Source: a virus. Taken from it: DNA of 64,000 bases. Shown piece by piece: positions 5,140 to 19,958 of the stretch. Position 1 is the stretch's first letter. The number at the start of each line of letters is the position of its first letter. The position numbers and the translations under genes are program-made. The stretch lies in the UHGV virus genome UHGV-0036853; one strand, written 5' to 3'. The notes below the pieces were generated by a model. It saw nothing but the letters and a program-made list of their open reading frames with translations, searched no databases and was not told the DNA's origin.

Positions 5140-8100
5140 CTATGTCTTAATAGTTTCTGCTACGTCGGCTAATATCGCTTCTAGTCGTTCTCCCTCTTCA
5201 GGTCTGAAGTAAAGAATGTTGGGGTTAAACCCGTAAAAGACAGTAACGTCAAGGTCTGGAAGATACTCCTTCCTGCCGACTAAATCGGATGGCTTGTTTT
5301 TGTTGTTAAACATTGCCGTTGCCCGGCTGCCACACGTCAGCACATAGGTCGGACGCACCAGATTGATCTCTTCACGCATAAAGTCGGTGAACTGGCCGAT
5401 CTCGTCTTTGGTGTAGTCCTTTTCTTTGTCTTTCACCTTTTTGCAAACGCCTGTGACATAGAGATCGCCCATGCGCAAATCCCCAGCCGTCAACAGCTTG
5501 GCCTTAAAATCGTCGTATCCGTTTTCCATAAAGTAACCGGTTCGAGCATCATTGCCGTTCGCATTGTCCAGAATGATCATGATTTTCGGCTTAATACCAA
5601 TGCTGGGGCGGATTAGTTCATCACCCAAGCCCATTTCAGCCGCCATCCGTGTCATGAGCACGTTAATCTCAGCCGAACGTTTGGGGTTCATCTCAAACGG
5701 ACGTGAGGCTTTAACTGCATCTATGACAAGGTTTCCCATCAATTCAGCCTGGTCGCGGAGGCGCTCTGGATCAGTTGCTGGCAGACTACCTGGCTCGATG
5801 GATGCAAACGCCCCTACTTTTTGCAGCGATTCGCGCACTCGACTATTACAGGCACGTTTCTCGACAGCTTCTTCGAATTGCGCAAGTGATTCGAATTTGC
5901 CGCCAACCTTTTCTCGCGCTCTCATGATGGCCAGGCAGCCATTCTCAGAACACCCTTTCACAGCAGAGAAGGGCGCATACAGCACCTGGCTACCATCTTC
6001 AAGCGTGCGGATCTCGATTCGGTTAGATGACACGTTAACGTCTGGTGGCAATACGCGAATACCATAGGTCAGCGCATCTTTAACCAGCCCCTGGTGTTTA
6101 TCTTCGCCAAGAATAGTGAGAGCAGCAGCGAAAAACTCTGCGGGATAATGAGTTTTCAACCACATAGATTGATAACTGATTAAGGAGTAAGCAACAGAGT
6201 GTGATTTGTTGAACTGGTAGGCACCATTCTTTTCGAATGCGGTCCAGATCTCCTTCGCTTTCATCTCTGATAGCCCTGGATGTGACGCTGTAACGCGTAC
6301 TGCGTTTATAGGTAGTTTTGCGCCGTACTCAAGTGCCTCTTCGACAGTTTTCAGAGTTCCGTCTTCGCATTTAAAATGTTCCGCACGGTGAATGCGCTGT
6401 GTAGTGCCATCTTCCAGCTCAACGTCTATCCAGCCAGCTTGAGCCTGAACGATGAACTTCTCGCCCATGCTCTTCATTTTTTCCATGTCTTTTTTGCCGA
6501 TCGCTTTACGAACGCCGTCAGCTTCAGCCATTGTGAAGCCAGCAAGCAATCGAGTCGCGTTCATCGTCTGTTCCTGATAGAGAATCACGCCATTTGTTTC
6601 TGCGGTAAGTTCATCAAGAACGGGGTGTAATGATTCCGGCGTCATAAAGCCTTTGGCGACAGAAACATAATCATCCAACATGCCTGACTGAATTGGTCCC
6701 GGCCGGAAGAGCGCAGTCGTAGCAACGACCGTTTTAAAGCTCATTGGCTCAATTCCACCACCTAAATCTTTAAGCAGCTTGCGCATTGGGCCTGATTCAA
6801 GCTGGAAAACACCTTGAGTGTACCCAGCAGCAAAACCATCCAGCACCTTGCGATCTTCAAGAGAAATGGCATCAAGATTGATATCTTCACCTCTGTTCTC
6901 TTTTATGTAGCGTTTTGCACTATCGAGCAAATCGAGAGTTGCTAGGCCAAGCACGTCCAGCTTAATTAGGCCCATAGCCTCGCAGTAACGCTTGTCAAAT
7001 GCGATACAACGCGCGTCACCACGTCGTTCAACCGGTGTACGTTCTGTCAGAGGAACACCTGCTACGATCATCCCTGCCGCATGTCTACCAAAGCCACGCA
7101 TAAGGCTTTGTAACTTGCAGGCTGCATTGAATGCATCAGGGTATTTTGTCGCGTATTTGTCGAGACTTGCCAGTTGTTCGCGCAGCTCCTCCAATGGAAG
7201 GCTATCATCCTCGACGTTCTTCAGTTCTTTTGATACCGCCATATCTGCGGACTCCACACCATAAATACGAGCGGTGTCACGTAGTGCAGAGGCCGCGCCC
7301 AGGTAGGTGAAGTTCGGAATGCCTGCAACGTAATCTTCGCCGTAGCGTTCATTCAGATACTCGATCACCTCATGGCGACGTGCCTGGCTGAAGTCCAAGT
7401 CCGCATCTGGCAAGTCGAGACGCTCAGGGTTGATGAAACGCTCAAACAGAAGACCGTGACGGATTGGGTCGACGTTGGTTATGCCTATGCACCACGCCAC
7501 CAGAGAACCGGCAGAGGAACCACGACCAGGCCCAACGGGAATGCCAGTTTCACGACTATGATTCATCAGATCGCGCACCATCAGGAAGTAACCACAGAAT
7601 CCCAGGCGAGTAAGCGTGTCCATTTCGTACTTTAGCCGCTCAACATAAACCCTGTTCTCAGAAGCTGGTGGTGTGTAGCCAAACTCTTTTGTGGTAAGAC
7701 GTTTACGCAGCCCTGCAACAGCCAGTTTCATCAGCGTTGCAGGTTCGTCGTCTGCCATCTTGGGCAGTGCTGGTGGCAATTCATGCCAGCGCCATGTACA
7801 GGCTTCGATAATGGCGTCCTGCGTTGTTGAGGCCATTGCAGCTGTTACCGGCACATCCATGCGAACGGAGAAGGCTTTAAGCGCCTCAAGGAGATGGCGG
7901 CGACCATTGACGGCGTTATCTCGCTGGTGGGGGATACGCAGACGATGCGGCTGGTCGATTTTGATGTTGTTCGTAACCATGTGCGCAATGTCTTTAATGT
8001 CTGCATCGTCGATCGATTCGTAATAAGCGGGATAAAACGCTACTGGCTCTATTTTCAGTGCGCTGGCGACTTTCATCGCCCGGAAGTTAATCTGGTCGTA

Positions 8101-8658
8101 GAATGGGGTAGGGTGCGGATAAACCACACTATAGAAGTTGTCTTTTCCACCCGCTGTAATCAGTGTGCTTATAATTTTTGCAAAATCGTTGCGTTGGAAC
8201 ACGCTACCGATGTCGGAAGTGAGCAGGATGATGTTGCCTTTGGCATATGTAGAAACCAACTGTTCGAGCGAGAGACGCGGTACAAAGTAGAACTGTTCTC
8301 GTGTGTTGGCCACCGTCATTAGTTCGCAGATGTCGCGATATCCTTGCTCATTTTTAATTAGAGCGGTAAACGAGTAGTTACGTCCTCGCTCTAATGATTC
8401 CATACATCCCTTAGACTCTTTAGCAAGTTTAGCCCGGTACTCGTATGTGGGATCATCAACGATATTTAGTTTCACACCACAAATAACCGCCATGTCGTCA
8501 CCAGCGGCACGTTGTAGTGGAATAACACTCGCAATATTCATGCTATCTGCTGAAATTACAGCGGTGTAGCCAGCTTCTCTGGCAATCTTCACCGCGTTTT
8601 CCGCTTTTAACGCCGACTCCCCAAGTGAGAAGTCAGTTCGAACCATCAGTGCCTTCAT
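5140..8658 (-). CDS. DNA polymerase III alpha-type (DnaE-like) replicative polymerase
   Basis: 1172 aa, N-terminal PHP-like region, polymerase-core conserved blocks. Confidence 0.85.
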   Translation of the reverse strand: MKALMVRTDFSLGESALKAENAVKIAREAGYTAVISADSMNIASVIPLQRAAGDDMAVICGVKLNIVDDPTYEYRAKLAKESKGCMESLERGRNYSFTALIKNEQGYRDICELMTVANTREQFYFVPRLSLEQLVSTYAKGNIILLTSDIGSVFQRNDFAKIISTLITAGGKDNFYSVVYPHPTPFYDQINFRAMKVASALKIEPVAFYPAYYESIDDADIKDIAHMVTNNIKIDQPHRLRIPHQRDNAVNGRRHLLEALKAFSVRMDVPVTAAMASTTQDAIIEACTWRWHELPPALPKMADDEPATLMKLAVAGLRKRLTTKEFGYTPPASENRVYVERLKYEMDTLTRLGFCGYFLMVRDLMNHSRETGIPVGPGRGSSAGSLVAWCIGITNVDPIRHGLLFERFINPERLDLPDADLDFSQARRHEVIEYLNERYGEDYVAGIPNFTYLGAASALRDTARIYGVESADMAVSKELKNVEDDSLPLEELREQLASLDKYATKYPDAFNAACKLQSLMRGFGRHAAGMIVAGVPLTERTPVERRGDARCIAFDKRYCEAMGLIKLDVLGLATLDLLDSAKRYIKENRGEDINLDAISLEDRKVLDGFAAGYTQGVFQLESGPMRKLLKDLGGGIEPMSFKTVVATTALFRPGPIQSGMLDDYVSVAKGFMTPESLHPVLDELTAETNGVILYQEQTMNATRLLAGFTMAEADGVRKAIGKKDMEKMKSMGEKFIVQAQAGWIDVELEDGTTQRIHRAEHFKCEDGTLKTVEEALEYGAKLPINAVRVTASHPGLSEMKAKEIWTAFEKNGAYQFNKSHSVAYSLISYQSMWLKTHYPAEFFAAALTILGEDKHQGLVKDALTYGIRVLPPDVNVSSNRIEIRTLEDGSQVLYAPFSAVKGCSENGCLAIMRAREKVGGKFESLAQFEEAVEKRACNSRVRESLQKVGAFASIEPGSLPATDPERLRDQAELMGNLVIDAVKASRPFEMNPKRSAEINVLMTRMAAEMGLGDELIRPSIGIKPKIMIILDNANGNDARTGYFMENGYDDFKAKLLTAGDLRMGDLYVTGVCKKVKDKEKDYTKDEIGQFTDFMREEINLVRPTYVLTCGSRATAMFNNKNKPSDLVGRKEYLPDLDVTVFYGFNPNILYFRPEEGERLEAILADVAETIKT

Positions 8659-12589: not shown

Positions 12590-12840
12590 TCAATCAATCC
12601 ATTCTAACTTATACTATGGTAAGGAATACTACTAAAATTTGTATCAATACTGAATACATCCATATCAGATGCAAGTTAATTTTCTTACCTATTTTGGGCT
12701 AGTTTTTCTCCATGCATGGACCTTTACTCGGTCTTACAAGTGCCTGCCGAAAAAAATGATAATAGCTTTACAACCCTAACCTTTGATGTAATATCGGTAA
12801 GCACTTACCAGAGAGAATTAAACGCGCAAAGGTTGTAACA

Positions 12841-13227
12841 ATGTCTGACAACAAGATTGAATTTATAGAAAGTCGCTATGCTGCTTTTATCGCAGGGCTG
12901 ATTGAATCCTCACCTATGAGTCAGGCCCAAATAGCCAGACTTATTGGTTATAAAAATGCCAACAACCTTTCTTTAATTAAAAGTGGCAAAATTCCTTTGC
13001 CTATCGATAAGGTTCGTCCGTTGGCGCTGGCGCTGGGTATTGAGCCAAGTCGTCTTATGATGATGGTGCTGGAAGAACGCCAACCTGAACTCGCAGCATT
13101 TTTATACAAAGAAGGCACCGCTCCTCTTAACGAGGACGAAAAACAGGTTCTTGCTGCATATAACGAGCGATTCGGTAAAGAGAAAGGCGCATCACAAAAG
13201 GTTGTTGAGGCCATAAAGTCTCTATGA
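12841..13227 (+). CDS. HTH (XRE-like) transcriptional regulator
   Basis: helix-turn-helix signature SQAQIARLIGYKNANNLSLIKSG; convergent with integrase. Confidence 0.55.
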   Translation: MSDNKIEFIESRYAAFIAGLIESSPMSQAQIARLIGYKNANNLSLIKSGKIPLPIDKVRPLALALGIEPSRLMMMVLEERQPELAAFLYKEGTAPLNEDEKQVLAAYNERFGKEKGASQKVVEAIKSL

Positions 13228-14325
13228 AAAATTTACACGAATAAGCTCTGTTGATAGACGATCTCCCTTGAATTTGTGGTCAATTTCGTCTAAATCCGGT
13301 TGCTCTACGATTGATGCGATGTACGTCGAGAAACTTTCTAAGGCGTCTCGCATCTCGTCCATATAATCGTGCCGGTCGTAGACCCGATCTATCCCCTCAA
13401 GACTGTGGTTCATGATTTTGCGTGATACCTCCTGGCTTATGCCTAATGCTGGGAAGTAACTACGCGCAGTACGGCGCAAATCTCGGGGTGTAAATGGCTC
13501 AAGCTCCATCAGTTCTGGTCTTTCCAGAATACGACGTAATGCCTGGGCTATTGCCACTTTGGACATAGGAAGGTCTTTCCCGATTTTTTTATTCGAAGGC
13601 ACGAGCCACTGGCTGTCTTTACCGTATTCGAACAACTCTTCAATGCATGTGCGCATTAATGTGCTTAAAGGCAGCGAATGCTCACGTGCTGACTTGTTTC
13701 TCTTGCCTTGATTCCAAACCCCACGCTTAAGATTGAACTCACTTTTTTTAGCCCGCAGTACTTCGTCAGGTCGTCTTGCTGATACAAGACACAGCCTGGC
13801 CGCCCATTTTGTACCAGCGCACACATTGAAGTAGTCCCATATATTCCAGAACACCCATACCTCTGCGTCGGTCAGCTTCCGCTCGCGAGGTGTGGGCTTT
13901 GCGCCACCGGCAACTTTGTTTAGTGACATATCGTTTAACGGTGACACGTCTATCATCCCCTGGAAGGCGCACCAGCTAAGGAACTGCTTCATCAGAGAGA
14001 AAACGCGGCGGCCCATAACAATTTTGCCATCCAGTATTAGTGGGTTGACCAGTTGGTTCACCATGAACCTATTAATGTCACTTACTTTTACATCGGCAAT
14101 GTGCGGCAAAACATGTATCAAAATACAATGAACAGCGATCTCTGGCCGACGTCTGGTTATCAGCAGAGATAAGCGAGTGAATAACATGAATGCGTCCGAG
14201 AATCTCATATCATTGCTAACCTGCGAGATCATAACGGCCTGCATTTGAGATGCTCTTTCGAGATACTCAATCGCCTCTTTTGAGGTGTTCTCCGCAGCGC
14301 GTGCTCTGTCAAAGCTATTTTTCAT
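13222..14325 (-). CDS. tyrosine recombinase / integrase
   Basis: C-terminal catalytic region with RDLRRTARS, NHSLEG and Y in DRHDYMD. Confidence 0.75.
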   Translation of the reverse strand: MKNSFDRARAAENTSKEAIEYLERASQMQAVMISQVSNDMRFSDAFMLFTRLSLLITRRRPEIAVHCILIHVLPHIADVKVSDINRFMVNQLVNPLILDGKIVMGRRVFSLMKQFLSWCAFQGMIDVSPLNDMSLNKVAGGAKPTPRERKLTDAEVWVFWNIWDYFNVCAGTKWAARLCLVSARRPDEVLRAKKSEFNLKRGVWNQGKRNKSAREHSLPLSTLMRTCIEELFEYGKDSQWLVPSNKKIGKDLPMSKVAIAQALRRILERPELMELEPFTPRDLRRTARSYFPALGISQEVSRKIMNHSLEGIDRVYDRHDYMDEMRDALESFSTYIASIVEQPDLDEIDHKFKGDRLSTELIRVNFS

Positions 14326-14413
14326 ATGACAATCACCGAGTTACGCCGATTCACTGTATAAGTAAACAGTATATTAGGCATAGATTCTTATAGGATCAAG
14401 AGTAAAAGTAACT

Positions 14414-14446
14414 CATTTTCACTAATGATTCCATACATAGTAGGTA
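14414..14446. promoter_or_regulatory. perfect 13-bp-arm inverted repeat, candidate operator
   Basis: aatgattccatac atagtag gtatggaatcatt; half-site copies near 17238-17254 and 18251-18267. Confidence 0.5.
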
Positions 14447-14509
14447 TGGAATCATTTAGACGTTGTTTTTTGAATTTTAAGGGAAACAGGAGTGAGTTTG
14501 GTGGGAATA

Positions 14510-14533
14510 AAAAAACGGCTCCTGTGAGCCGTT
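14510..14533 (-). terminator. intrinsic terminator downstream of glutaredoxin gene
   Basis: hairpin cggctcctgtgagccg followed by T-run on minus strand. Confidence 0.55.
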
Positions 14534-14537
14534 AAAA

Positions 14538-14783
14538 TCAGAGGGTGCTGACGTATGCAGCCAGTTCTGTGTATCCGCCAATCGGCTGGCCATCGATCAG
14601 CACCTGGGGGATAGTCTCTACCGGTTTACCAACAATTTCACTTAGTTTTTCCTTGTCGATACCGGCAGTGGTGATGTCGATGTACTCATAATCACCGTAG
14701 CCATGTCCCTTTAGTTGCTTCGCCAGCTCGACTGCACGTTTGCAGTATGAGCAGTTATCTCGTCCGTAGATAGTGATCGTCAT
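14538..14783 (-). CDS. glutaredoxin (GrxA/NrdH-like)
   Basis: CSYC active site; KPVETIPQVLIDGQPIGGY matches the glutaredoxin fold. Confidence 0.8.
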   Translation of the reverse strand: MTITIYGRDNCSYCKRAVELAKQLKGHGYGDYEYIDITTAGIDKEKLSEIVGKPVETIPQVLIDGQPIGGYTELAAYVSTL

Positions 14784-14956
14784 AACCTAACAAATACCTT
14801 TATAAATATTGATTCGAACATATCAGACTATACTACAAACAGATTTTTTTGATAAGTATGTAGTAACTTATTGATTGACTGGTAAACAATTGAAGTGATT
14901 ATGACAATAGATTACAGTAAGGATTGCCTTGAAATGTACATTTTATAGAGGTTTTA

Positions 14957-15865
14957 ATGATTGGTAAGTTGTCTGATTCTTTGATTGAAAATAAATACAA
15001 CGAATTTAGAGAAGAAATATCTTTACTTTTTGACTATTTAAATCAGATAAATGATACAACAAAGAAAAATATAAAACGTCTTCTAAAAGAAGTGGAGTAT
15101 GCACAGAATCCAGATACTATTATTAATATTAATGAAACTATTAAGATTAAGTGTGGCACAACGTTAGCTCGCCATTTATGTTCAAACCCATATACAGGTT
15201 CAACATTAGAGATAGGTAACAGCGCCATTGATTTAGAAGAAAAGATAAGATTGTGTAATGTTTTGAAGAATAAACAATATCAGTGGGTTATTACTGAAGC
15301 CTATGAGTTACTGGAAGACTATATTGAGGCAATATATGTCTATACTGTATGTGTTCGAAATGATTTCTGGTCCTCAAGTAATTTTGGTAAGGTTGAAGAT
15401 GATGACATTGGGAAAGGGGAAGTTTATTACAAATTATTAAAAGCAAAAAGTAACCCATCGAAAAAAATAATTAAAATTTTCAGAAATAAAATACCTGGCT
15501 TCAAAGAGATAGAAATAAACAACAAGATTGGTAAAAACTATCGCTTTAACATCAAGCTAATTGAACTACTAAGACATACAATAGTACACAATAGTGGACG
15601 ATTCAATGATACAGAAAAATTTATAAATAAGGTTTTAGATGAATCTGAAATAAACGGTAAGAAAAGAGTTATTGGAGAAAGAGCTGTTAGAAGTTACATT
15701 GCTAAAGTGCAAGAAGATGATATTGTAATGCTCTTAGAAAGACCATCTGAAATTTTTGGTTCTTTTGGTGGTTATTTTAACAGAGCAAAATTTTTACTAA
15801 GTGATATTTTAGAATACTCACTAATCATTAAAGAAGAACTAAAATCATATCTAGGCAATCATTAA
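14957..15865 (+). CDS. AT-rich accessory protein, possible HEPN-type (Abi-like) protein
   Basis: 302 aa, low GC by eye, Rx4H motif RHTIVH, own terminator; functional call is weak. Confidence 0.4.
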   Translation: MIGKLSDSLIENKYNEFREEISLLFDYLNQINDTTKKNIKRLLKEVEYAQNPDTIININETIKIKCGTTLARHLCSNPYTGSTLEIGNSAIDLEEKIRLCNVLKNKQYQWVITEAYELLEDYIEAIYVYTVCVRNDFWSSSNFGKVEDDDIGKGEVYYKLLKAKSNPSKKIIKIFRNKIPGFKEIEINNKIGKNYRFNIKLIELLRHTIVHNSGRFNDTEKFINKVLDESEINGKKRVIGERAVRSYIAKVQEDDIVMLLERPSEIFGSFGGYFNRAKFLLSDILEYSLIIKEELKSYLGNH

Positions 15866-15869
15866 CAAA

Positions 15870-15896
15870 AAAAGGGGCCGAAGCCCCTTTGAATTT
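15870..15896 (+). terminator. intrinsic terminator
   Basis: ggggccgaagcccc hairpin followed by T-rich tract. Confidence 0.7.
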
Positions 15897-16044
15897 TGCG
15901 CTGAAAAAAGTGTTGCTAGGATGTTAGCAAGCTATGGTTAAGAACGTCTGCCGTAATTGTCTATCACAGCGTTGAGCGGTCTGGTTTATGTTAGCGGAGT
16001 CTTAATCTGGGTGATTAAAAGGCCAAACCGCTCAACGCTGTGTC

Positions 16045-16131
16045 TGGCGGAGAGTAATGGAATCGAACCATCATCGCTTGCGCAATGGGACGGTTTTCAA
16101 GACCGCTTGAGCACCATGCTCCCTACTCTCC
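16045..16131 (-). tRNA. tRNA-Ser (anticodon UGA), long variable arm
   Basis: cloverleaf by hand: acceptor GGAGAGT/ACTCTCC, anticodon loop CTTGAAA, T-loop GGTTCGATTCC, encoded CCA. Confidence 0.7.
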
Positions 16132-16799
16132 GGCCGTTGTGGTGGCCGGTACTGAATCTCCGGCATACGGTGCAGCCAATTAGGACTACGGACGATCACC
16201 GCTCGCGAAAGGGAAGATTTGCGGCCGCATTTCCCTAACATCCAAGAAAGCTATCGCATCAGTCTGCGAATCCACCACAACGGAAAGAGCATTCACGTCT
16301 CGCGTGCCACCACGAATGGCAACTCAGAGAGTCGAACTCTGAAAATGCTCTTACCTGTTGTGTGCTGTGTCACTCCCTCCGCTATTACCTGGCTTTGCCT
16401 CGACCTTTTAGGTTGCGTCCGATGATAAACAGGGCTGTCGGAAATTTGTCTGTGACACAGCGATAAGAGAACTCGATGCATTTAAGCCAAGCCCCATATG
16501 GGAAGTTCTCTTATCTGTTGTGCGCTCCGTTTCGTGGAGCTAACGGCGGGTGAACAGGCCGCACCAGGTTGGACATATTTCAGCGTTATGCTGTTGCAAG
16601 AGAGCCAAATTGTGATGGTCGGTGCTGAACTCCGACACAGGGTTGTAGCAAGCCCCGCAAAGCGCGCACTACTGTAGTTGCGGCACATCAGCCTGTGCAT
16701 TCACCACAATGTTGAGAACACTGGTTGTCACGCTGCAACGCAACATTTATTCATAGATTGGGATATGACCCCGTTACGCCAATGTTCTCAATATTATGT

Positions 16800-16875
16800 T
16801 GGTGCCGGTTAACGGACTTGAACCGCTGACCATTCGCTTACAAAGCGACTGCTCTACCAACTGAGCTAAACCGGC
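16800..16875 (-). tRNA. tRNA-Thr (anticodon UGU)
   Basis: acceptor GCCGGTT/AACCGGC, D-arm TAGCTCAGTTGGTAGAGCA, anticodon loop TTTGTAA, T-loop GGTTCAAGTCC, CCA. Confidence 0.75.
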
Positions 16876-16879
16876 AATT

Positions 16880-16966
16880 TGGTGGGGAGTGATGGAGTCG
16901 AACCACCCGAGTCGCAATGACAGTAGATTTACAGTCTACCCCGCTACCCCTACGGACTAACTCCCC
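16880..16966 (-). tRNA. tRNA-Tyr (anticodon GUA), long variable arm
   Basis: acceptor GGGGAGT/ACTCCCC, anticodon arm GTAGA-CTGTAAA-TCTAC, T-loop GGTTCGACTCC, CCA. Confidence 0.7.
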
Positions 16967-16971
16967 TAAAT

Positions 16972-17046
16972 TGGCGATGGTGGGTGGATTCGAACCACCG
17001 ACCAGTTGGTTAACAGCCAACTGCTCTACCGCTGAGCTACACCATC
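16972..17046 (-). tRNA. tRNA-Asn (anticodon GUU)
   Basis: acceptor GATGGTG/CACCATC, anticodon arm GTTGG-CTGTTAA-CCAAC, T-loop GGTTCGAATCC, CCA. Confidence 0.7.
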
Positions 17047-17824
17047 AATTCGGCACTGCCAGTATTTATTACTCAACAGTGCCAATCGCGACGGTTTAGT
17101 TTCTGCCAGGAAACGCACCGCTACTTGCACTTTTCGTTAGTGCCAGACGCTTTCGACTTCGCTCAATAGTAGAAGGCAAACTCTTTAAGTAGATGATGTT
17201 TCTGAGGACAGCACCTACTTTGTAATTTATACAATGTGATGTATGGAATCATTTGTTGTGAAAACAGGCACCAATGGCAACAGTGGTTAAACCTACACAA
17301 CTATTCTGTCTTCACAACGTTGAGGCCACTACTCCGATTGAATGTTTGCCCAACATGTTACATATCAACGCTCGCCGGTATCTCTGTGAATAGAACCTTA
17401 GAATTGATAAAAATGTAATGGCCTCAACGTTGTGTGCTGGCTAACCATACCAGCCGGGCTACGTCGCCGCTTTTTAACCCAGTATAAACGACATAATTGA
17501 ACAAAATGACGTAACAGAATGGGCGGTCAGTGGCTAAGAATCCGGGAGTCATATGGAGTTGAAAATATACCGACCGCCCATTCTGTTACTTCATCGGAGG
17601 GAACACTCATGTTCCCTCCTGCGTTCTGCAATCACACTCGCTCAGTGTGTCCCATTTCGGTAACGAGGCTGGAAACTGACCTCGCTGGTGTTTGGCTTAT
17701 TAGGCTACTGCCAGATAGACTTCTTCGTTTGCACTTGTATTTAAGTTCAAACAGTCGCGTCTCAACGAAAACAAAGTCATCTTATACACAAAAGATAAGT
17801 AAGTAAATACTTATCAATATGTTT

Positions 17825-18115
17825 TTATTCGGTTGTGACTTTTTTGATCAAGGCCACTCTAGGACTAGGTGTTCTTGTAATGGTGGCAGTGAATCGTTTC
17901 GCTTGGATAGTAATGGTTTCGTTCTCCTTAAGTTGCCCGTAGCGAGTTTCCACCAGGGTGCCAAGACGCCACAGACCATCATCGATACGTTTATGACTAG
18001 CAAATTTAATCAGCAACAGTTTTACGACTAACTGACCTACGTAAAAGGCGAATGCGACTCCGGCCGCTAAGAAATAGGTGGCCAACCACCAGTCCCAAGA
18101 AGTTAAATTGCTCAT
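17825..18115 (-). CDS. small membrane protein (hypothetical)
   Basis: N-terminal hydrophobic helix WWLATYFLAAGVAFAFYV. Confidence 0.4.
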   Translation of the reverse strand: MSNLTSWDWWLATYFLAAGVAFAFYVGQLVVKLLLIKFASHKRIDDGLWRLGTLVETRYGQLKENETITIQAKRFTATITRTPSPRVALIKKVTTE

Positions 18116-18260
18116 TTTCTAACCTTTGTTTCATGAACTACCCGATACACACGCTTTCCGATGCACAGTGTTTTGGTTTTAAGTTCCTGCTTAATTAAGT
18201 CACGACAGATGCCGAAGCCGATAAGGAAGCCACCCATAAAAGCTAATGAGATGTATGGAA

Positions 18261-18476
18261 TCATTTTAACACTCCTGATTCTACTAATTGCTGTAGCAAT
18301 ACTTTCCCTTTATCAGTTAACTGGTAGTTGGCCGAACACTTCGTTTCAGAAACGTTTGCAACCAACCCTAACCGCTCTAACTTAGCCCGCGTTTTAGGCT
18401 TCCAGTACTCAGGGAACTCTGACCACTTACTGATTTCATGAAGCGTTTCCTTCTCCCGCTTACTTAATACGATCAT
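18261..18476 (-). CDS. hypothetical protein
   Basis: ORF only. Confidence 0.35.
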   Translation of the reverse strand: MIVLSKREKETLHEISKWSEFPEYWKPKTRAKLERLGLVANVSETKCSANYQLTDKGKVLLQQLVESGVLK

Positions 18477-18635
18477 CCTTAATCTCCTTCACTGTGTGGG
18501 TTATTTCTACAATGCGATAAATACGACCGCGTCGTTCTATAACACCGCTTTTAATGTAGTCATTGATGCAACTGGACATCACCACAATACCGATTAAAAA
18601 ACCAACCGCTAAAAATGCAATCATCCAGCCGAGCA

Positions 18636-19958
18636 TCATTCTTTATCTCCGATTCGATCTTCTGTATCGCGTAAGCAACGCGGCCATTTCAGTCGTGGGT
18701 GGCGTAAGCTGCCATCCGGCGTTTTCTCGTGACAATGAACCTCGACAATACGACCACGGTACTTCTCTTTATTGTTCCAGATCTCGTCCAGATATTTATG
18801 CTTAATGCCGCTCGCACGAACAATCACACCGTTTTCAAGTCGAATAACAATTTTTCCAAGCGTGTTGGCAAAACCAGAGTCCGGGTCGCCCGGCTCAAAG
18901 TCGATAATTTCACCATCTTCTGAATCTTCGTCTTTTAACTTCCACCAGCTGCGGGTACGTTTAAACTCGTAAACAGAGTTCGGATCTTTGCCCATCTCCC
19001 CTTCTTCGTTATCGTCCAGGCGTTTCATGAAGCGTTCGATGAAGTCTTCGTGGCTATGGATGATGTAGAACGGATGTAGGTGAATGTCTTGCGCGTAGTC
19101 TTCACTGCGATCGTTTTTGAACAACGCCACGAGAATAGCCAGGCGCTCTTTCAGCTTCATACCTGTCTTTGCATACTCTTTGGATTTAGCCTGTGCCCGC
19201 CATTCCGGTAGGAAGAAGTCGAAAACATGATAAATAGCGCCAATTGCCTGCACGTTCTTTTTGCGCAATGCAGATACGGACTGGTTAAATGAACCGGCTG
19301 TTCCTTCACCATCGAAGAAGATGTGTTTGTGGCCTGAAAGTTTGCCTAATTCGAGCATGGCTGGCTTTAGGTGATCGAGAGACGTGATTGGATTACCAGT
19401 ACGAGAAAGGAAGTTCACCTCTTCCTCGTCAACAATAACCTCGCAAATTACTCGCAAACCATCGAGCTTAAGGCTGCCAATCATCGGCCATTTTGCTTTA
19501 GGATTTGGCTTGAAGGGGTATTTGTCGCCTTTTTCTTTATACGGTGACGCCAGCTGCACCTCGAATTTCGGAATGGGATTTTCAAAAACCTTGTTGCATA
19601 GGCTAATCCCAACGCCAGCTTTCGGATCTTTTAAGAGGAAACGACGGAACACGTCCTGCCCATCGGCGCACATTGACGCCACGATAGACTCAACAGCAGC
19701 TATTGCTGCGTTCCCCGTCAGCTCGCGAGAGGCCAGCTTATTCAGTATATCAATGGCTTTTTCGTCACTTGGGACGGACTCACTAAGCGGCTCTGCCACT
19801 TTGTATTTCTTTACCCCAAAACGGATGAAAGGGTTGAGCATCAATGAAACCATGCTTTGCTCGAAGTCATCCATGTTGGCCAATGCCTCTTTTTTTGCAT
19901 TGGTTCCCATAGTTTTCATTTCGTCCAGCTTATGCTTAAGTGCGATCAACTTTTTCAT
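18636..19958 (-). CDS. ATP-dependent DNA ligase
   Basis: adenylation motif I KLDGLR; FFDGEG; basic C-terminal block. Confidence 0.8.
   Translation of the reverse strand: MKKLIALKHKLDEMKTMGTNAKKEALANMDDFEQSMVSLMLNPFIRFGVKKYKVAEPLSESVPSDEKAIDILNKLASRELTGNAAIAAVESIVASMCADGQDVFRRFLLKDPKAGVGISLCNKVFENPIPKFEVQLASPYKEKGDKYPFKPNPKAKWPMIGSLKLDGLRVICEVIVDEEEVNFLSRTGNPITSLDHLKPAMLELGKLSGHKHIFFDGEGTAGSFNQSVSALRKKNVQAIGAIYHVFDFFLPEWRAQAKSKEYAKTGMKLKERLAILVALFKNDRSEDYAQDIHLHPFYIIHSHEDFIERFMKRLDDNEEGEMGKDPNSVYEFKRTRSWWKLKDEDSEDGEIIDFEPGDPDSGFANTLGKIVIRLENGVIVRASGIKHKYLDEIWNNKEKYRGRIVEVHCHEKTPDGSLRHPRLKWPRCLRDTEDRIGDKE

Follow-up and report, generated by a model that had tools for sequence, protein, structure and literature searches.

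What does a perfect inverted repeat do just upstream of the integrase gene of a phage-plasmid? The window analyzed here, 64,000 nucleotides of the virus genome UHGV-0036853, is a phage-plasmid of the SSU5/pHCM2 type. An earlier note on its sequence had proposed that the repeat is either a repressor operator or a recombination site, serving the adjacent integrase and HTH regulator. We favor a version of the second proposal and estimate a probability of roughly 70% that the palindrome is a loxP-like core recombination site of the adjacent recombinase, used most likely for multimer resolution and serving also as a junction for cargo exchange.

The palindrome and its flanks

The palindrome was described correctly in the earlier note: its 13-bp arms match perfectly and enclose the 7-bp spacer ATAGTAG, which reads CTACTAT in the direction of the integrase gene (Table 1). 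The left arm AATGATTCCATAC occupies positions 14424-14436, the spacer 14437-14443, and the right arm GTATGGAATCATT 14444-14456. The gap to the integrase ATG is 98 nt, which agrees with the previous estimate of about 90 bp. No second 13-7-13 site exists within the window at up to three mismatches, and a comparable site was absent from all 100 shuffles.

Table 1. Positions of the features discussed, in coordinates of the window
Feature	Position	Strand	Basis or context
Tyrosine recombinase (integrase) gene, 367 aa; core-binding and catalytic domains, no arm-binding domain	13222-14325	minus	Pfam
HTH regulator gene, convergent with the integrase gene, 6-nt overlap	12841-13227	plus	Travels with the integrase in phage-plasmids
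Candidate core site, 13-7-13 perfect inverted repeat AATGATTCCATAC-ATAGTAG-GTATGGAATCATT	14424-14456		Read from sequence
Candidate integrase promoter: -35 TTGATC (14399-14394), 17-nt spacer, -10 TAATAT (14376-14371)	14371-14399	minus	Read from sequence
LexA-box-like palindrome TACTGTTTACTTATACAGT	14353-14371	minus	Abuts the -10 element, one-base overlap
Cargo-side accessory element: A-run, then TAAAAT (window variant of YAGAWT)	14466-14479	minus	Fixed phase
Intrinsic terminator of the glutaredoxin gene	14514-14533	minus	Sequence prediction
Variable cargo region, bounded by the palindrome	14457-17046		Relatives compared
Single copy h1, AATGATTCCATACATC	17238-17253	minus	Non-coding, ~195 nt upstream of tRNA-Asn; faces the palindrome
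Single copy h2, AATGATTCCATACATC	18250-18265	minus	ATG and first four codons (MIPYI) of a 50-aa ORF (18112-18264); faces the palindrome
Single copy h3, AATGATTCCATACATC	8393-8408	plus	Antisense within the dnaE-like gene, codons CMESL; faces the palindrome from the opposite side
Degenerate copy CTTGATTCCAAAC in the integrase gene	13707-13719	plus	Codons VWNQG; faces the palindrome

On the integrase side, about 24 nt separate the palindrome from the -35 element of a candidate promoter that is conserved in the E. coli and Klebsiella groups and scores 8 of 12, under the threshold of the scanning tool. The adjoining TACTGTTTACTTATACAGT is the sole LexA-box match in the window (0.01 expected) and holds the same position in 69 of 76 ATGATTCCATAC-type loci. 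With a CTGT-N8-ACAG box that overlaps it and is conserved in relatives, the predicted integrase promoter fits the LexA (SOS) class. With this promoter on one side and the glutaredoxin terminator on the other, the palindrome is probably untranscribed.

The cargo-side flank carries an accessory element of about 15 bp that starts ~23-25 nt from the arm (25 nt counted from the arm's TGA). Of 28 independent cargo-side flank families, 16 contain its YAGAWT motif, compared with 1 of 28 on the integrase side, and 14 of the motif's 18 occurrences begin at position -25.

The recombinase and its association with the site

The recombinase matches Pfam PF00589 and, in part, PF22022. A Pfam search did not find the arm-binding domain PF13356 in it, and this domain is missing from every homologue at 44% identity or above. 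PF13356 is present in outgroup recombinases at 34% identity or below, and one outgroup locus (L098) adjoins what appears, judged by eye and outside the tRNA finder, to be the 3' end of a tRNA gene. The catalytic residues R185, K208/K211, R281-x-x-R284, H307, and Y316 are invariant across 30 homologues, and the active site, tyrosine included, is unchanged in a family that diverges down to 25% identity. In an AlphaFold model of the protein (pLDDT 84), residues 1-40 form short helices, and the best structural matches are lambda Int residues 75-356, Xer, and Tn1549 Int. By sequence and structure together, the closest relatives are P4-type and lambda-type integrases (lambda Int residues 102-342; PF22022). 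We rejected membership in the Cre family, as single-sequence and profile searches against PDB sequences gave no Cre match at E up to 1, and Foldseek placed Cre (E 0.02-0.2, versus 2e-6 for lambda Int) below lambda Int, Xer, Tn1549 Int, and IntI.

Of the first 79 loci, 76 have the palindrome upstream of the integrase gene with invariant arms; the exceptions are one locus whose integrase match begins at residue 54 and two whose proteins share just 24-27% identity. All 12 additional family members also have a site upstream of the gene. Family-wide, inverted arms of 11-13 bp enclose a 7-bp AT-rich spacer and are located 35-180 nt upstream of the recombinase gene; the spacer, which is 80% A+T and takes 16 different sequences, has the same length in all 91 sites. 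Arms of the form (A)ATGATTCCATAC accompany integrases of 56-100% identity, and (A/G)TGACTCCAGAC arms accompany those of 44-52% identity (Photorhabdus, Xenorhabdus, Providencia, Pantoea, Rahnella, and Erwinia). Two positions differ between these types, altered symmetrically in both arms, and the 7-bp spacing is retained. The sequence of the site tracks the specificity of its recombinase. Four loci, on Pantoea, Rahnella, and Erwinia plasmids, combine site and integrase but lack the HTH gene, a 70-aa gene, and the phage genes; in Pantoea, just 19 nt separate the site from the start codon, and there is no LexA box. In every genomic context examined, the palindrome accompanies the integrase gene.

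Similarity between relatives breaks exactly at the edges of the site, on either side. In 305 locus pairs, identity reaches 95% or more on the integrase side and stays under 80% on the cargo side, and seven pairs show the reverse, a conserved cargo side with a diverged integrase side. Loci L058 and L042 agree at every position through the final base of the site; a 1-kb patch of ~80% identity begins there and ends within the integrase gene. Megablast homology of the window to PhiR41_1 and Klebsiella phages stops at 14455-14456. Linkage, co-variation of the arms, and homology breakpoints at the site edges thus support the original proposal of a recombination site for the adjacent integrase. Such sharp breakpoints could in principle stem from some other fragility of a palindrome. 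The spacer can point either way with respect to the integrase, and in one case (L002 versus L033) it is reversed between flanks that stay the same. Site-specific recombination alone cannot flip a spacer between unchanged flanks, so this case calls for another cause, for example template switching at the hairpin.

The cargo region measures 1.2-6.7 kb across relatives; in the window, it comprises a glutaredoxin gene, a 302-aa low-GC ORF of unknown function, and four tRNA genes (16045-17046). PhoH and ligase genes are located within or beside it in relatives, and resistance genes have been described next to PhoH and ligase in SSU5_pHCM2 elements (PMC9600943). Distinct inserts of 0.9-1.3 kb abut the arm in five relatives. 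An integron-like capture platform was rejected because no motif copy was found at the far ends of the variable inserts and none of the loci examined held two full sites. A palindrome acting as an exchange junction would explain why the variable region has a single fixed start point.

We surveyed 5426 complete E. coli genomes for chromosomal and plasmid copies of the region. It was present in 214, in one copy each and always on a plasmid; none of the 214 was chromosomal, and no integrated copies with hybrid att sites were found. A search for the palindrome at prophage junctions, the check suggested in the earlier note, therefore came out empty, and the enzyme does not behave as a chromosomal integrase. 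The region also occurs in Yersinia pestis (108-kb contig) and on Klebsiella and Enterobacter plasmids, and the element encodes replication and partition genes of its own.

The palindrome has the features of a core site of the loxP, FRT, or dif type, namely inverted arms, a spacer in the 6-8 bp range, a recombinase with a complete active site encoded nearby, and matched specificity. We infer that the recombinase binds the arms and exchanges strands in the spacer, and that the system is selected for multimer resolution. One subunit would occupy each 13-bp arm, and strand exchange would take place across the AT-rich spacer, as at loxP, FRT, and dif. Multimers of the plasmid would be converted back to monomers, and incoming DNA might also be circularized, as by Cre/loxP of P1; resolution is the likeliest task since the element is maintained as a plasmid. 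Recombination between the sites of co-resident related plasmids would, as a side effect, swap cargo or integrase segments and leave a sharp junction. Counting against this reading, none of the loci carried two sites, as a dimer or co-integrate would, a housekeeping resolution system does not need a LexA box on the integrase promoter, and a plain Cre/loxP model gives no role to a fixed-phase accessory motif or to single copies kilobases away.

Single copies of the arm

Exact single copies of the 13-mer arm lie at 17241, 18253, and 8393. Two of these are the half-sites previously placed near 17238 and 18251, which we find as ATGTATGGAATCATTT at 17239-17254 and 18251-18266; the fifth exact copy (8393-8405, plus strand), in a dnaE-like DNA polymerase gene (5140-8658), had been overlooked. 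The half-sites had been said to flank the tRNA cluster. Both in fact lie on one side of the tRNA genes, whereas the palindrome and the copies together do bracket the tRNA/cargo region. The longer motif common to the three single copies is AATGATTCCATACATC, with a 15-mer seen three times against 0.00 expected. The window holds no further copies with one or two mismatches. In the whole 108-kb genome of the relative Cyrano, a scan allowing up to two mismatches gives these five arms and nothing else; none is more than 10 kb from the integrase gene, and two fall in coding sequence.

The single copies are confined to one clade. Copy h1 is conserved among clade-1 relatives, h2 keeps its silent positions fixed whereas the flanking sequence varies, and the 13-mer of h3 is invariant across 30 distinct sequences, three silent positions included; the peptide loop that carries h3 is missing from clade-2 DnaE. 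The degenerate copy CTTGATTCCAAAC within the integrase gene is exactly TGATTCCATACATC in the Klebsiella group and in a relative of 56% identity. Its significance is uncertain because the conserved W-N-Q codons force part of the match.

A recombining role for the single copies was not borne out. No discordance was detected at h1, h2, or h3 in ~700 locus pairs each, and none of the three ever coincided with a homology breakpoint. Gene order is constant in ~90 loci, with no inversion or other rearrangement between the copies, and on these grounds we rejected a shufflon of the Rci/sfx kind. Most simply, the three or four single copies (consensus TGATTCCATACATC) would be extra, non-recombining binding sites for the same protein. 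We regard it as unlikely, if worth considering, that these inward-facing copies, up to 6 kb away, pair with the core through bound recombinase. Such pairing might gate recombination at the core, or it might couple the SOS-induced recombinase to expression of replication genes and, via convergent transcription, to the gene for the HTH repressor; this would make the recombinase a component of a lysogeny/lytic switch and not only a resolvase.

Alternative readings and known systems

It is also rather improbable that the recombinase binds the palindrome for regulation only, acting on its own SOS promoter or a cargo promoter, with the single copies as regulatory or roadblock sites and recombination not the selected function. 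Such a role would suit a site just upstream of an integrase promoter with a conserved LexA box, as well as single copies that are conserved yet never recombine, and the convergent, overlapping arrangement of the integrase and HTH genes means that integrase transcription could interfere with the repressor gene. It does not account for catalytic residues, tyrosine included, that persist down to 25% identity, for an AT-rich spacer held at 7 bp, or for exact breakpoints at both edges, and the Pantoea site, close to its start codon, has no LexA box.

We consider it very unlikely that the palindrome and single copies are operators of the HTH protein or of another repressor. The operators of P1 C1 are one-sided and paired, and a palindromic pair with one-sided singles resembles them. 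The HTH gene is adjacent, the lysogen expresses it (PMC9928086), the virulent phage SSU5 lacks it, and the palindrome sits close to the integrase -35 element. Against this, the HTH gene is dispensable for conservation of the palindrome, which is kept at integrase homologues in plasmids that lack the gene, and the motif is not spread over genome promoters: there are just three or four single copies in 108 kb, and two of these lie in coding sequence, not at promoters. The HTH gene also has candidate operators of its own (GGTAAG/CTTACC repeats at 12618-12809), and edge-exact homology breakpoints would not be expected of an operator. The earlier proposal of a repressor operator for the HTH regulator is hence not supported, and dispersed operators of the P1 C1 type were rejected, with all five arms in 108 kb at most 10 kb from the integrase gene and the palindrome retained in four plasmid loci without the HTH gene.

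That the palindrome is an attP for chromosomal integration is more improbable still. In its favor, the gene carries an integrase annotation and has P4-type and lambda-type enzymes as distant relatives. The arms, however, are perfectly symmetric, arm-type sites were not found, and the element replicates and partitions by its own genes; we rejected a lambda- or P4-type integrase with an attP on the absence of PF13356 at 44% identity or above and of any chromosomal copy among the 214 E. coli occurrences. Least probable of all is that the element acts as RNA, the palindrome being a terminator or processing hairpin and the single copies antisense partners (h1/h2 against h3 in dnaE mRNA and the copy in integrase mRNA): the hairpin is stable (the 141-nt stretch around it, 14400-14540, folds with a z-score of -6), h1/h2 on minus-strand transcripts are perfectly complementary to the dnaE copy over 16 nt, and silent-position conservation fits selection on RNA as well as DNA, but a strong terminator precedes the palindrome and the integrase promoter follows it, its stem has no following U-run, no Rfam family matches, and both the recombinase linkage in unrelated plasmids and the breakpoints at the site would go unexplained.

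For the favored reading, a core recombination site, a close parallel is Cre/loxP of P1 (also Flp/FRT and Dre/rox), in which a recombinase without an arm-binding domain is found beside two 13-bp inverted elements with a short asymmetric spacer; P1 is likewise a plasmid-maintained prophage, and the known role of Cre/loxP is multimer resolution and circularization. The present spacer has 7 bp where loxP has 8, the protein falls outside the Cre family, and the fixed-phase flanking motif, the single copies kilobases off, and the LexA box on the promoter have no counterpart there. The recombinase and palindrome very probably form a Cre/loxP-like pair that has not been described before.

XerCD/dif and cer/psi share a core with 11-bp arms and a 6-8 bp spacer, a function in multimer resolution, and a one-sided accessory sequence that gives directionality. 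They use two host enzymes on different half-sites, in contrast to one plasmid-encoded recombinase on identical arms, and the cer/psi accessory sequence spans ~180 bp bound by PepA, ArgR, or ArcA, compared with ~15 bp at 23 nt from the arm here. P4- and lambda-type integrases, the closest relatives in sequence and structure, differ in that PF13356 is absent from the whole present family, the site is symmetric and not an attP with arm sites, and chromosomal integration is not seen. As in TnpI/IRS of Tn4430 and the third FRT repeat, the extra motif copies beyond the core arms would be accessory and non-exchanging; those lie within ~100 bp of the core, whereas the present ones lie 0.7-6 kb away and partly in coding sequences. 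The sfx sites of the R64 shufflon resemble them in having one conserved arm and a 7-bp spacer inside coding sequence, but no inversion occurs here, and one between h2 and h3 would destroy dnaE.

Phage-plasmids of the SSU5/pHCM2 type are common, and some carry resistance genes. Their "integrase" has so far been without a known target or obvious job because the element does not integrate, and identification of its probable site gives the gene a testable function. The two natural recombinase/site specificities, ATGATTCCATAC and TGACTCCAGAC, are candidate tools for genome engineering without cross-reaction with existing ones, and the oriented single copies, together with LexA control, may point to a regulatory role.

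The palindrome and its surroundings

The region matches SSU5/pHCM2-type phage-plasmids. Its closest records by Megablast are Escherichia phage CMS-2020a, Cyrano (pLF82), and PhiR41_1, followed by Klebsiella elements and Salmonella phage SSU5. Almost all genes around the palindrome lie on the minus strand.

Features around the palindrome, in window coordinates
Feature	Coordinates	Strand	Placement
dnaE-like polymerase	5140-8658	minus	
Single copy h3, exact 13-mer	8393-8405	plus	in the dnaE-like gene
CobS-like and CobT-like genes			between dnaE-like gene and 70-aa ORF
70-aa ORF			divergent from HTH gene
GGTAAG/CTTACC hexamers, four	12618-12809		250-bp gap between HTH gene and 70-aa ORF
Palindrome GGTAAGCACTTACC	12796-12809		among the hexamers
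HTH gene	12841-13227	plus	
Tyrosine recombinase, annotated "integrase"	13222-14325		
LexA-box-like palindrome	14353-14371	minus	
Candidate integrase promoter	14399-14371		
Palindrome	14424-14456		between integrase and glutaredoxin genes
YAGAWT variant TAAAAT	14474-14479		
Glutaredoxin gene with own terminator			beyond palindrome, cargo side
302-aa low-GC ORF	14957-15865	plus	
Long hairpins	15965-16042, 16702-16801, 17313-17434, 17506-17594		
tRNA genes, four	16045-17046		
Small membrane-protein ORFs			past tRNA genes
Single copy h1, exact 13-mer	17241-17253	minus	
50-aa ORF	18112-18264	minus	
Single copy h2, exact 13-mer	18253-18265	minus	
59-aa ORF	18460-18639	minus	
DNA ligase gene			past small membrane-protein ORFs

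The palindrome is as the earlier note described it, with arms AATGATTCCATAC and GTATGGAATCATT around the spacer ATAGTAG, and it lies 98 nt from the integrase ATG. The exact 13-mer occurs five times in the window, as the two arms and three single copies (h1, h2, and h3), and no copy with 1–2 mismatches was found there. Both half-sites that the earlier note placed near 17238 and 18251 are present; the copy in the dnaE-like gene had been overlooked. The three single copies share the motif AATGATTCCATACATC, with 3 occurrences of the 15-mer core observed versus 0.00 expected. Cyrano's complete 108-kb genome likewise contains these five arms and nothing else within 2 mismatches. Allowing ≤3 mismatches in both Cyrano and the 64-kb window yielded no further copies, and a global operator was rejected; a replication origin or terminus at the palindrome was also rejected, as GC skew does not switch there.

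The 302-aa ORF lies in a patch with a GC content of 0.36 versus about 0.46. Assigned to PHROG 35492, a function-unknown family, it has no match in Pfam or NCBIfam and is likely a cargo ("moron") gene. Its slot in Cyrano is filled by CYRAN_43, reported at 723-fold over background in the lysogen (PMC9928086). Positions 16022-16815 are 91–95% identical to the tRNA/upl-plp region of the phage-plasmids P1, P7, and D6, a module common to otherwise unrelated phage-plasmid families. The tRNA-Ser to tRNA-Thr gap (16132-16800, about 660 nt) contains no convincing ORF. The long hairpins have related stems (CACAGCGTTGAGCGG, CACCACAATGTTGAGAAC, and CACAACGTTGAGGCC); two lie directly 3′ of tRNA-Ser and tRNA-Thr and one upstream of h1. 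This hairpin family has no Rfam match, a search for known RNA families found tRNAs alone, and the hairpins may have a processing or structural role in the tRNA region. The 50-aa and 59-aa ORFs are paralogous, each with one hydrophobic helix and the C-terminal motif G-[KR]-R-[VI]-Y-R-[VI]-V, and the former starts within h2 (MIPYI).

Linkage of the site to the recombinase and probable footprints of recombination

A search of viral and genome collections with the integrase protein as query gave 79 loci. In 76 of these, a 13-7-13 site precedes the integrase gene by ~100 nt; the three site-less loci are an integrase match starting from residue 54 and two proteins of 24–27% identity. The arms are invariant to 84% protein identity, and their inner 11 nt are kept at 56%. 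From a protein search with 134 homologues, twelve further loci were inspected. Nissabacter and Serratia loci (60% identity) retain the arm ATGATTCCATAC. Clade 2, with recombinases of 44–52% identity, carries arms of the form (A/G)TGACTCCAGAC - 7 nt - GTCTGGAGTCA and includes Photorhabdus, Xenorhabdus, Providencia, Pantoea vagans (507-kb contig), Rahnella, Erwinia, and two metagenomic contigs. The two arm groups differ at two positions, altered in both arms, and both retain the 7-bp spacer and a placement 35–180 nt upstream of the gene. The palindrome is also kept in Pantoea, Rahnella, Erwinia, and one additional locus (L097), all of which lack the HTH gene, the 70-aa gene, and phage genes; it therefore belongs with the recombinase rather than with the phage backbone or the HTH regulator. 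Of the two functions proposed in the earlier note, a recombination site for the integrase is supported, and an operator for the HTH protein is not.

The HTH and recombinase genes are convergent, overlapping by 6 nt (13222-13227). Every phage-plasmid relative retains this pair plus the 70-aa ORF, and they travel as a module, which adjoins Rep3/ParA in Photorhabdus; the virulent phage SSU5 lacks the entire module. The HTH protein may use the GGTAAG/CTTACC hexamers, with their internal palindrome, as operators.

Among loci with near-identical integrase-side flanks, the cargo-side flanks (away from the integrase gene) belong to ten or more unrelated families, which start from the arm's outer edge. 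Pairs of loci were compared over 250 bp on each side of the palindrome and called discordant when one side was ≥95% and the other <80% identical. In 305 pairs the integrase side was ≥95% and the cargo side <80%; 7 pairs showed the reverse. One pair (L058 and L042) is 100% identical to the last base of the site, ~80% identical for 1 kb, and then 98% identical inside the integrase gene. Megablast homology to PhiR41_1 and Klebsiella phages stops at 14455-14456. The same test at h1, h2, and h3 returned 0 discordant pairs versus 312 at the palindrome, ruling out the single copies as recombination breakpoints. The palindrome, unlike the single copies, is a crossover point in evolution. Five relatives contain differing inserts of 0.9–1.3 kb between the glutaredoxin terminator and the arm. 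Cassette capture by the recombinase was rejected: at its far end each insert shows no motif, just a diverged 3′ end of the glutaredoxin gene.

The spacer is seen both ways round relative to the integrase (CTACTAT / ATAGTAG; CTATTAA / TTAATAG). Loci L002 and L033 have opposite spacers and identical flanks on both sides, so spacer inversion was dropped as proof of site-specific inversion; their spacer flipped in place, as short-hairpin loops can. A YAGAWT motif followed by an A-run is present on the cargo side in 16/28 independent flank families and on the integrase side in 1/28, and it starts 25 nt from the arm TGA in 14 of 18 occurrences.

Single copies of the arm

The single copies have the consensus TGATTCCATACATC. 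Silent codon positions are conserved in h3 across 30 distinct dnaE sequences and in h2 across groups. Single copies are confined to the clade whose palindrome arms they resemble: the DnaE loop bearing h3 (GCMESL) is missing from clade-2 proteins, and clade-2 loci have no copy of the clade-2 arm within 6–8 kb of the integrase. All copies face the palindrome, with h2 and h1 on one side and an integrase-internal copy and h3 on the other. PhiR41_1 carries a copy where its 5.9-kb cargo ends, on the far side, a third context unrelated to the others.

The simplest reading is that the single copies are single, non-recombining putative binding sites of the same recombinase. We dropped the possibility that they are scars at the ends of an integrase island, which predicted outward-facing copies where inward-facing ones are seen. 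Hybrid sites with a degenerate second arm were also dropped: comparison of the bases 7–8 nt beyond each copy with the arm gave ≤6/11 matches, and these only for the E. coli-group h1. SSU5 lacks the whole island (70-aa ORF, HTH gene, integrase, palindrome, and cargo) and keeps h2 and h3 as well as h1, the last with one mismatch. The SSU5-type junction is absent from plasmids that share 99% identity with SSU5 across the matched stretch (for example Enterobacter asburiae plasmid NZ_CP103753.1), indicating that the island loss is recent. Being recent, this loss is uninformative, and SSU5 was dropped as evidence that single copies work without the recombinase.

In PhiR41_1 (L084, 14067-14334), just 33 codons of the ligase gene are left, followed by a mobile-element protein fragment; the 5.9-kb cargo replaces the small-gene and tRNA block and includes a GadW-like regulator. 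In the dnaE gene of L032, about 6058 nt downstream of that locus's palindrome, a 9-bp tandem duplication (gagatgtat gagatgtat) directly beside h3 adds three codons to the polymerase loop bearing the motif.

The recombinase, its predicted regulation, and plasmid lifestyle

In the recombinase, Pfam recognises the whole catalytic domain but the central domain in part. The arm-binding domain PF13356 is found in no family member of ≥44% identity and is present in the next outgroup (≤34%); one outgroup locus (L098) has no such palindrome and adjoins an apparent tRNA 3′ end, read by eye. The AlphaFold model (pLDDT 84) contains a core-binding and a catalytic domain, and its closest structural matches are lambda Int 75-356, Xer, and Tn1549 Int, with Cre weaker; a profile search of PDB sequences matched lambda Int residues 102-342. 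Catalytic residues are kept among homologues. The enzyme belongs to the lambda/P4 lineage of recombinases, has shed the arm-binding domain, and is paired with a simple symmetric site. By analogy, recombinase and site would resemble Cre/loxP in working mode, yet the protein is no relative of Cre.

The candidate integrase promoter is TTGATC-17-TAATAT. A LexA-box-like palindrome, TACTGTTTACTTATACAGT, abuts its −10 element with a one-base overlap; the 64-kb window has no other match (0.01 expected), and 69/76 ATGATTCCATAC-type loci carry the element at the same position. This arrangement predicts an SOS-inducible recombinase, and transcribing the integrase gene during SOS could disturb the HTH gene. 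Cyrano has a second such box just upstream of a LexA-like S24 peptidase gene (L082, about 39275).

The region is present in 214/5426 complete E. coli genomes, always on a plasmid, always in single copy, and never on the chromosome. This plasmid-only location favours a part in plasmid maintenance, for instance in resolving multimers, over chromosomal integration. Integrated copies were considered for one protein cluster with 0.2–1 Mb contigs and rejected; the retrieved contigs were 7–106 kb, with the usual phage-plasmid gene order. No site is named in PMC7969092, neither arm sequence occurs in any relevant paper in the literature searched, and the phage-plasmid papers among them treat tyrosine recombinases in general terms alone. 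Overall, this plasmid-prophage carries a simple tyrosine recombinase and a lox-like site, a pairing of a known kind, with extras beyond a plain lox-like site: the accessory motif, the spacer orientations, the LexA box, and the single copies.
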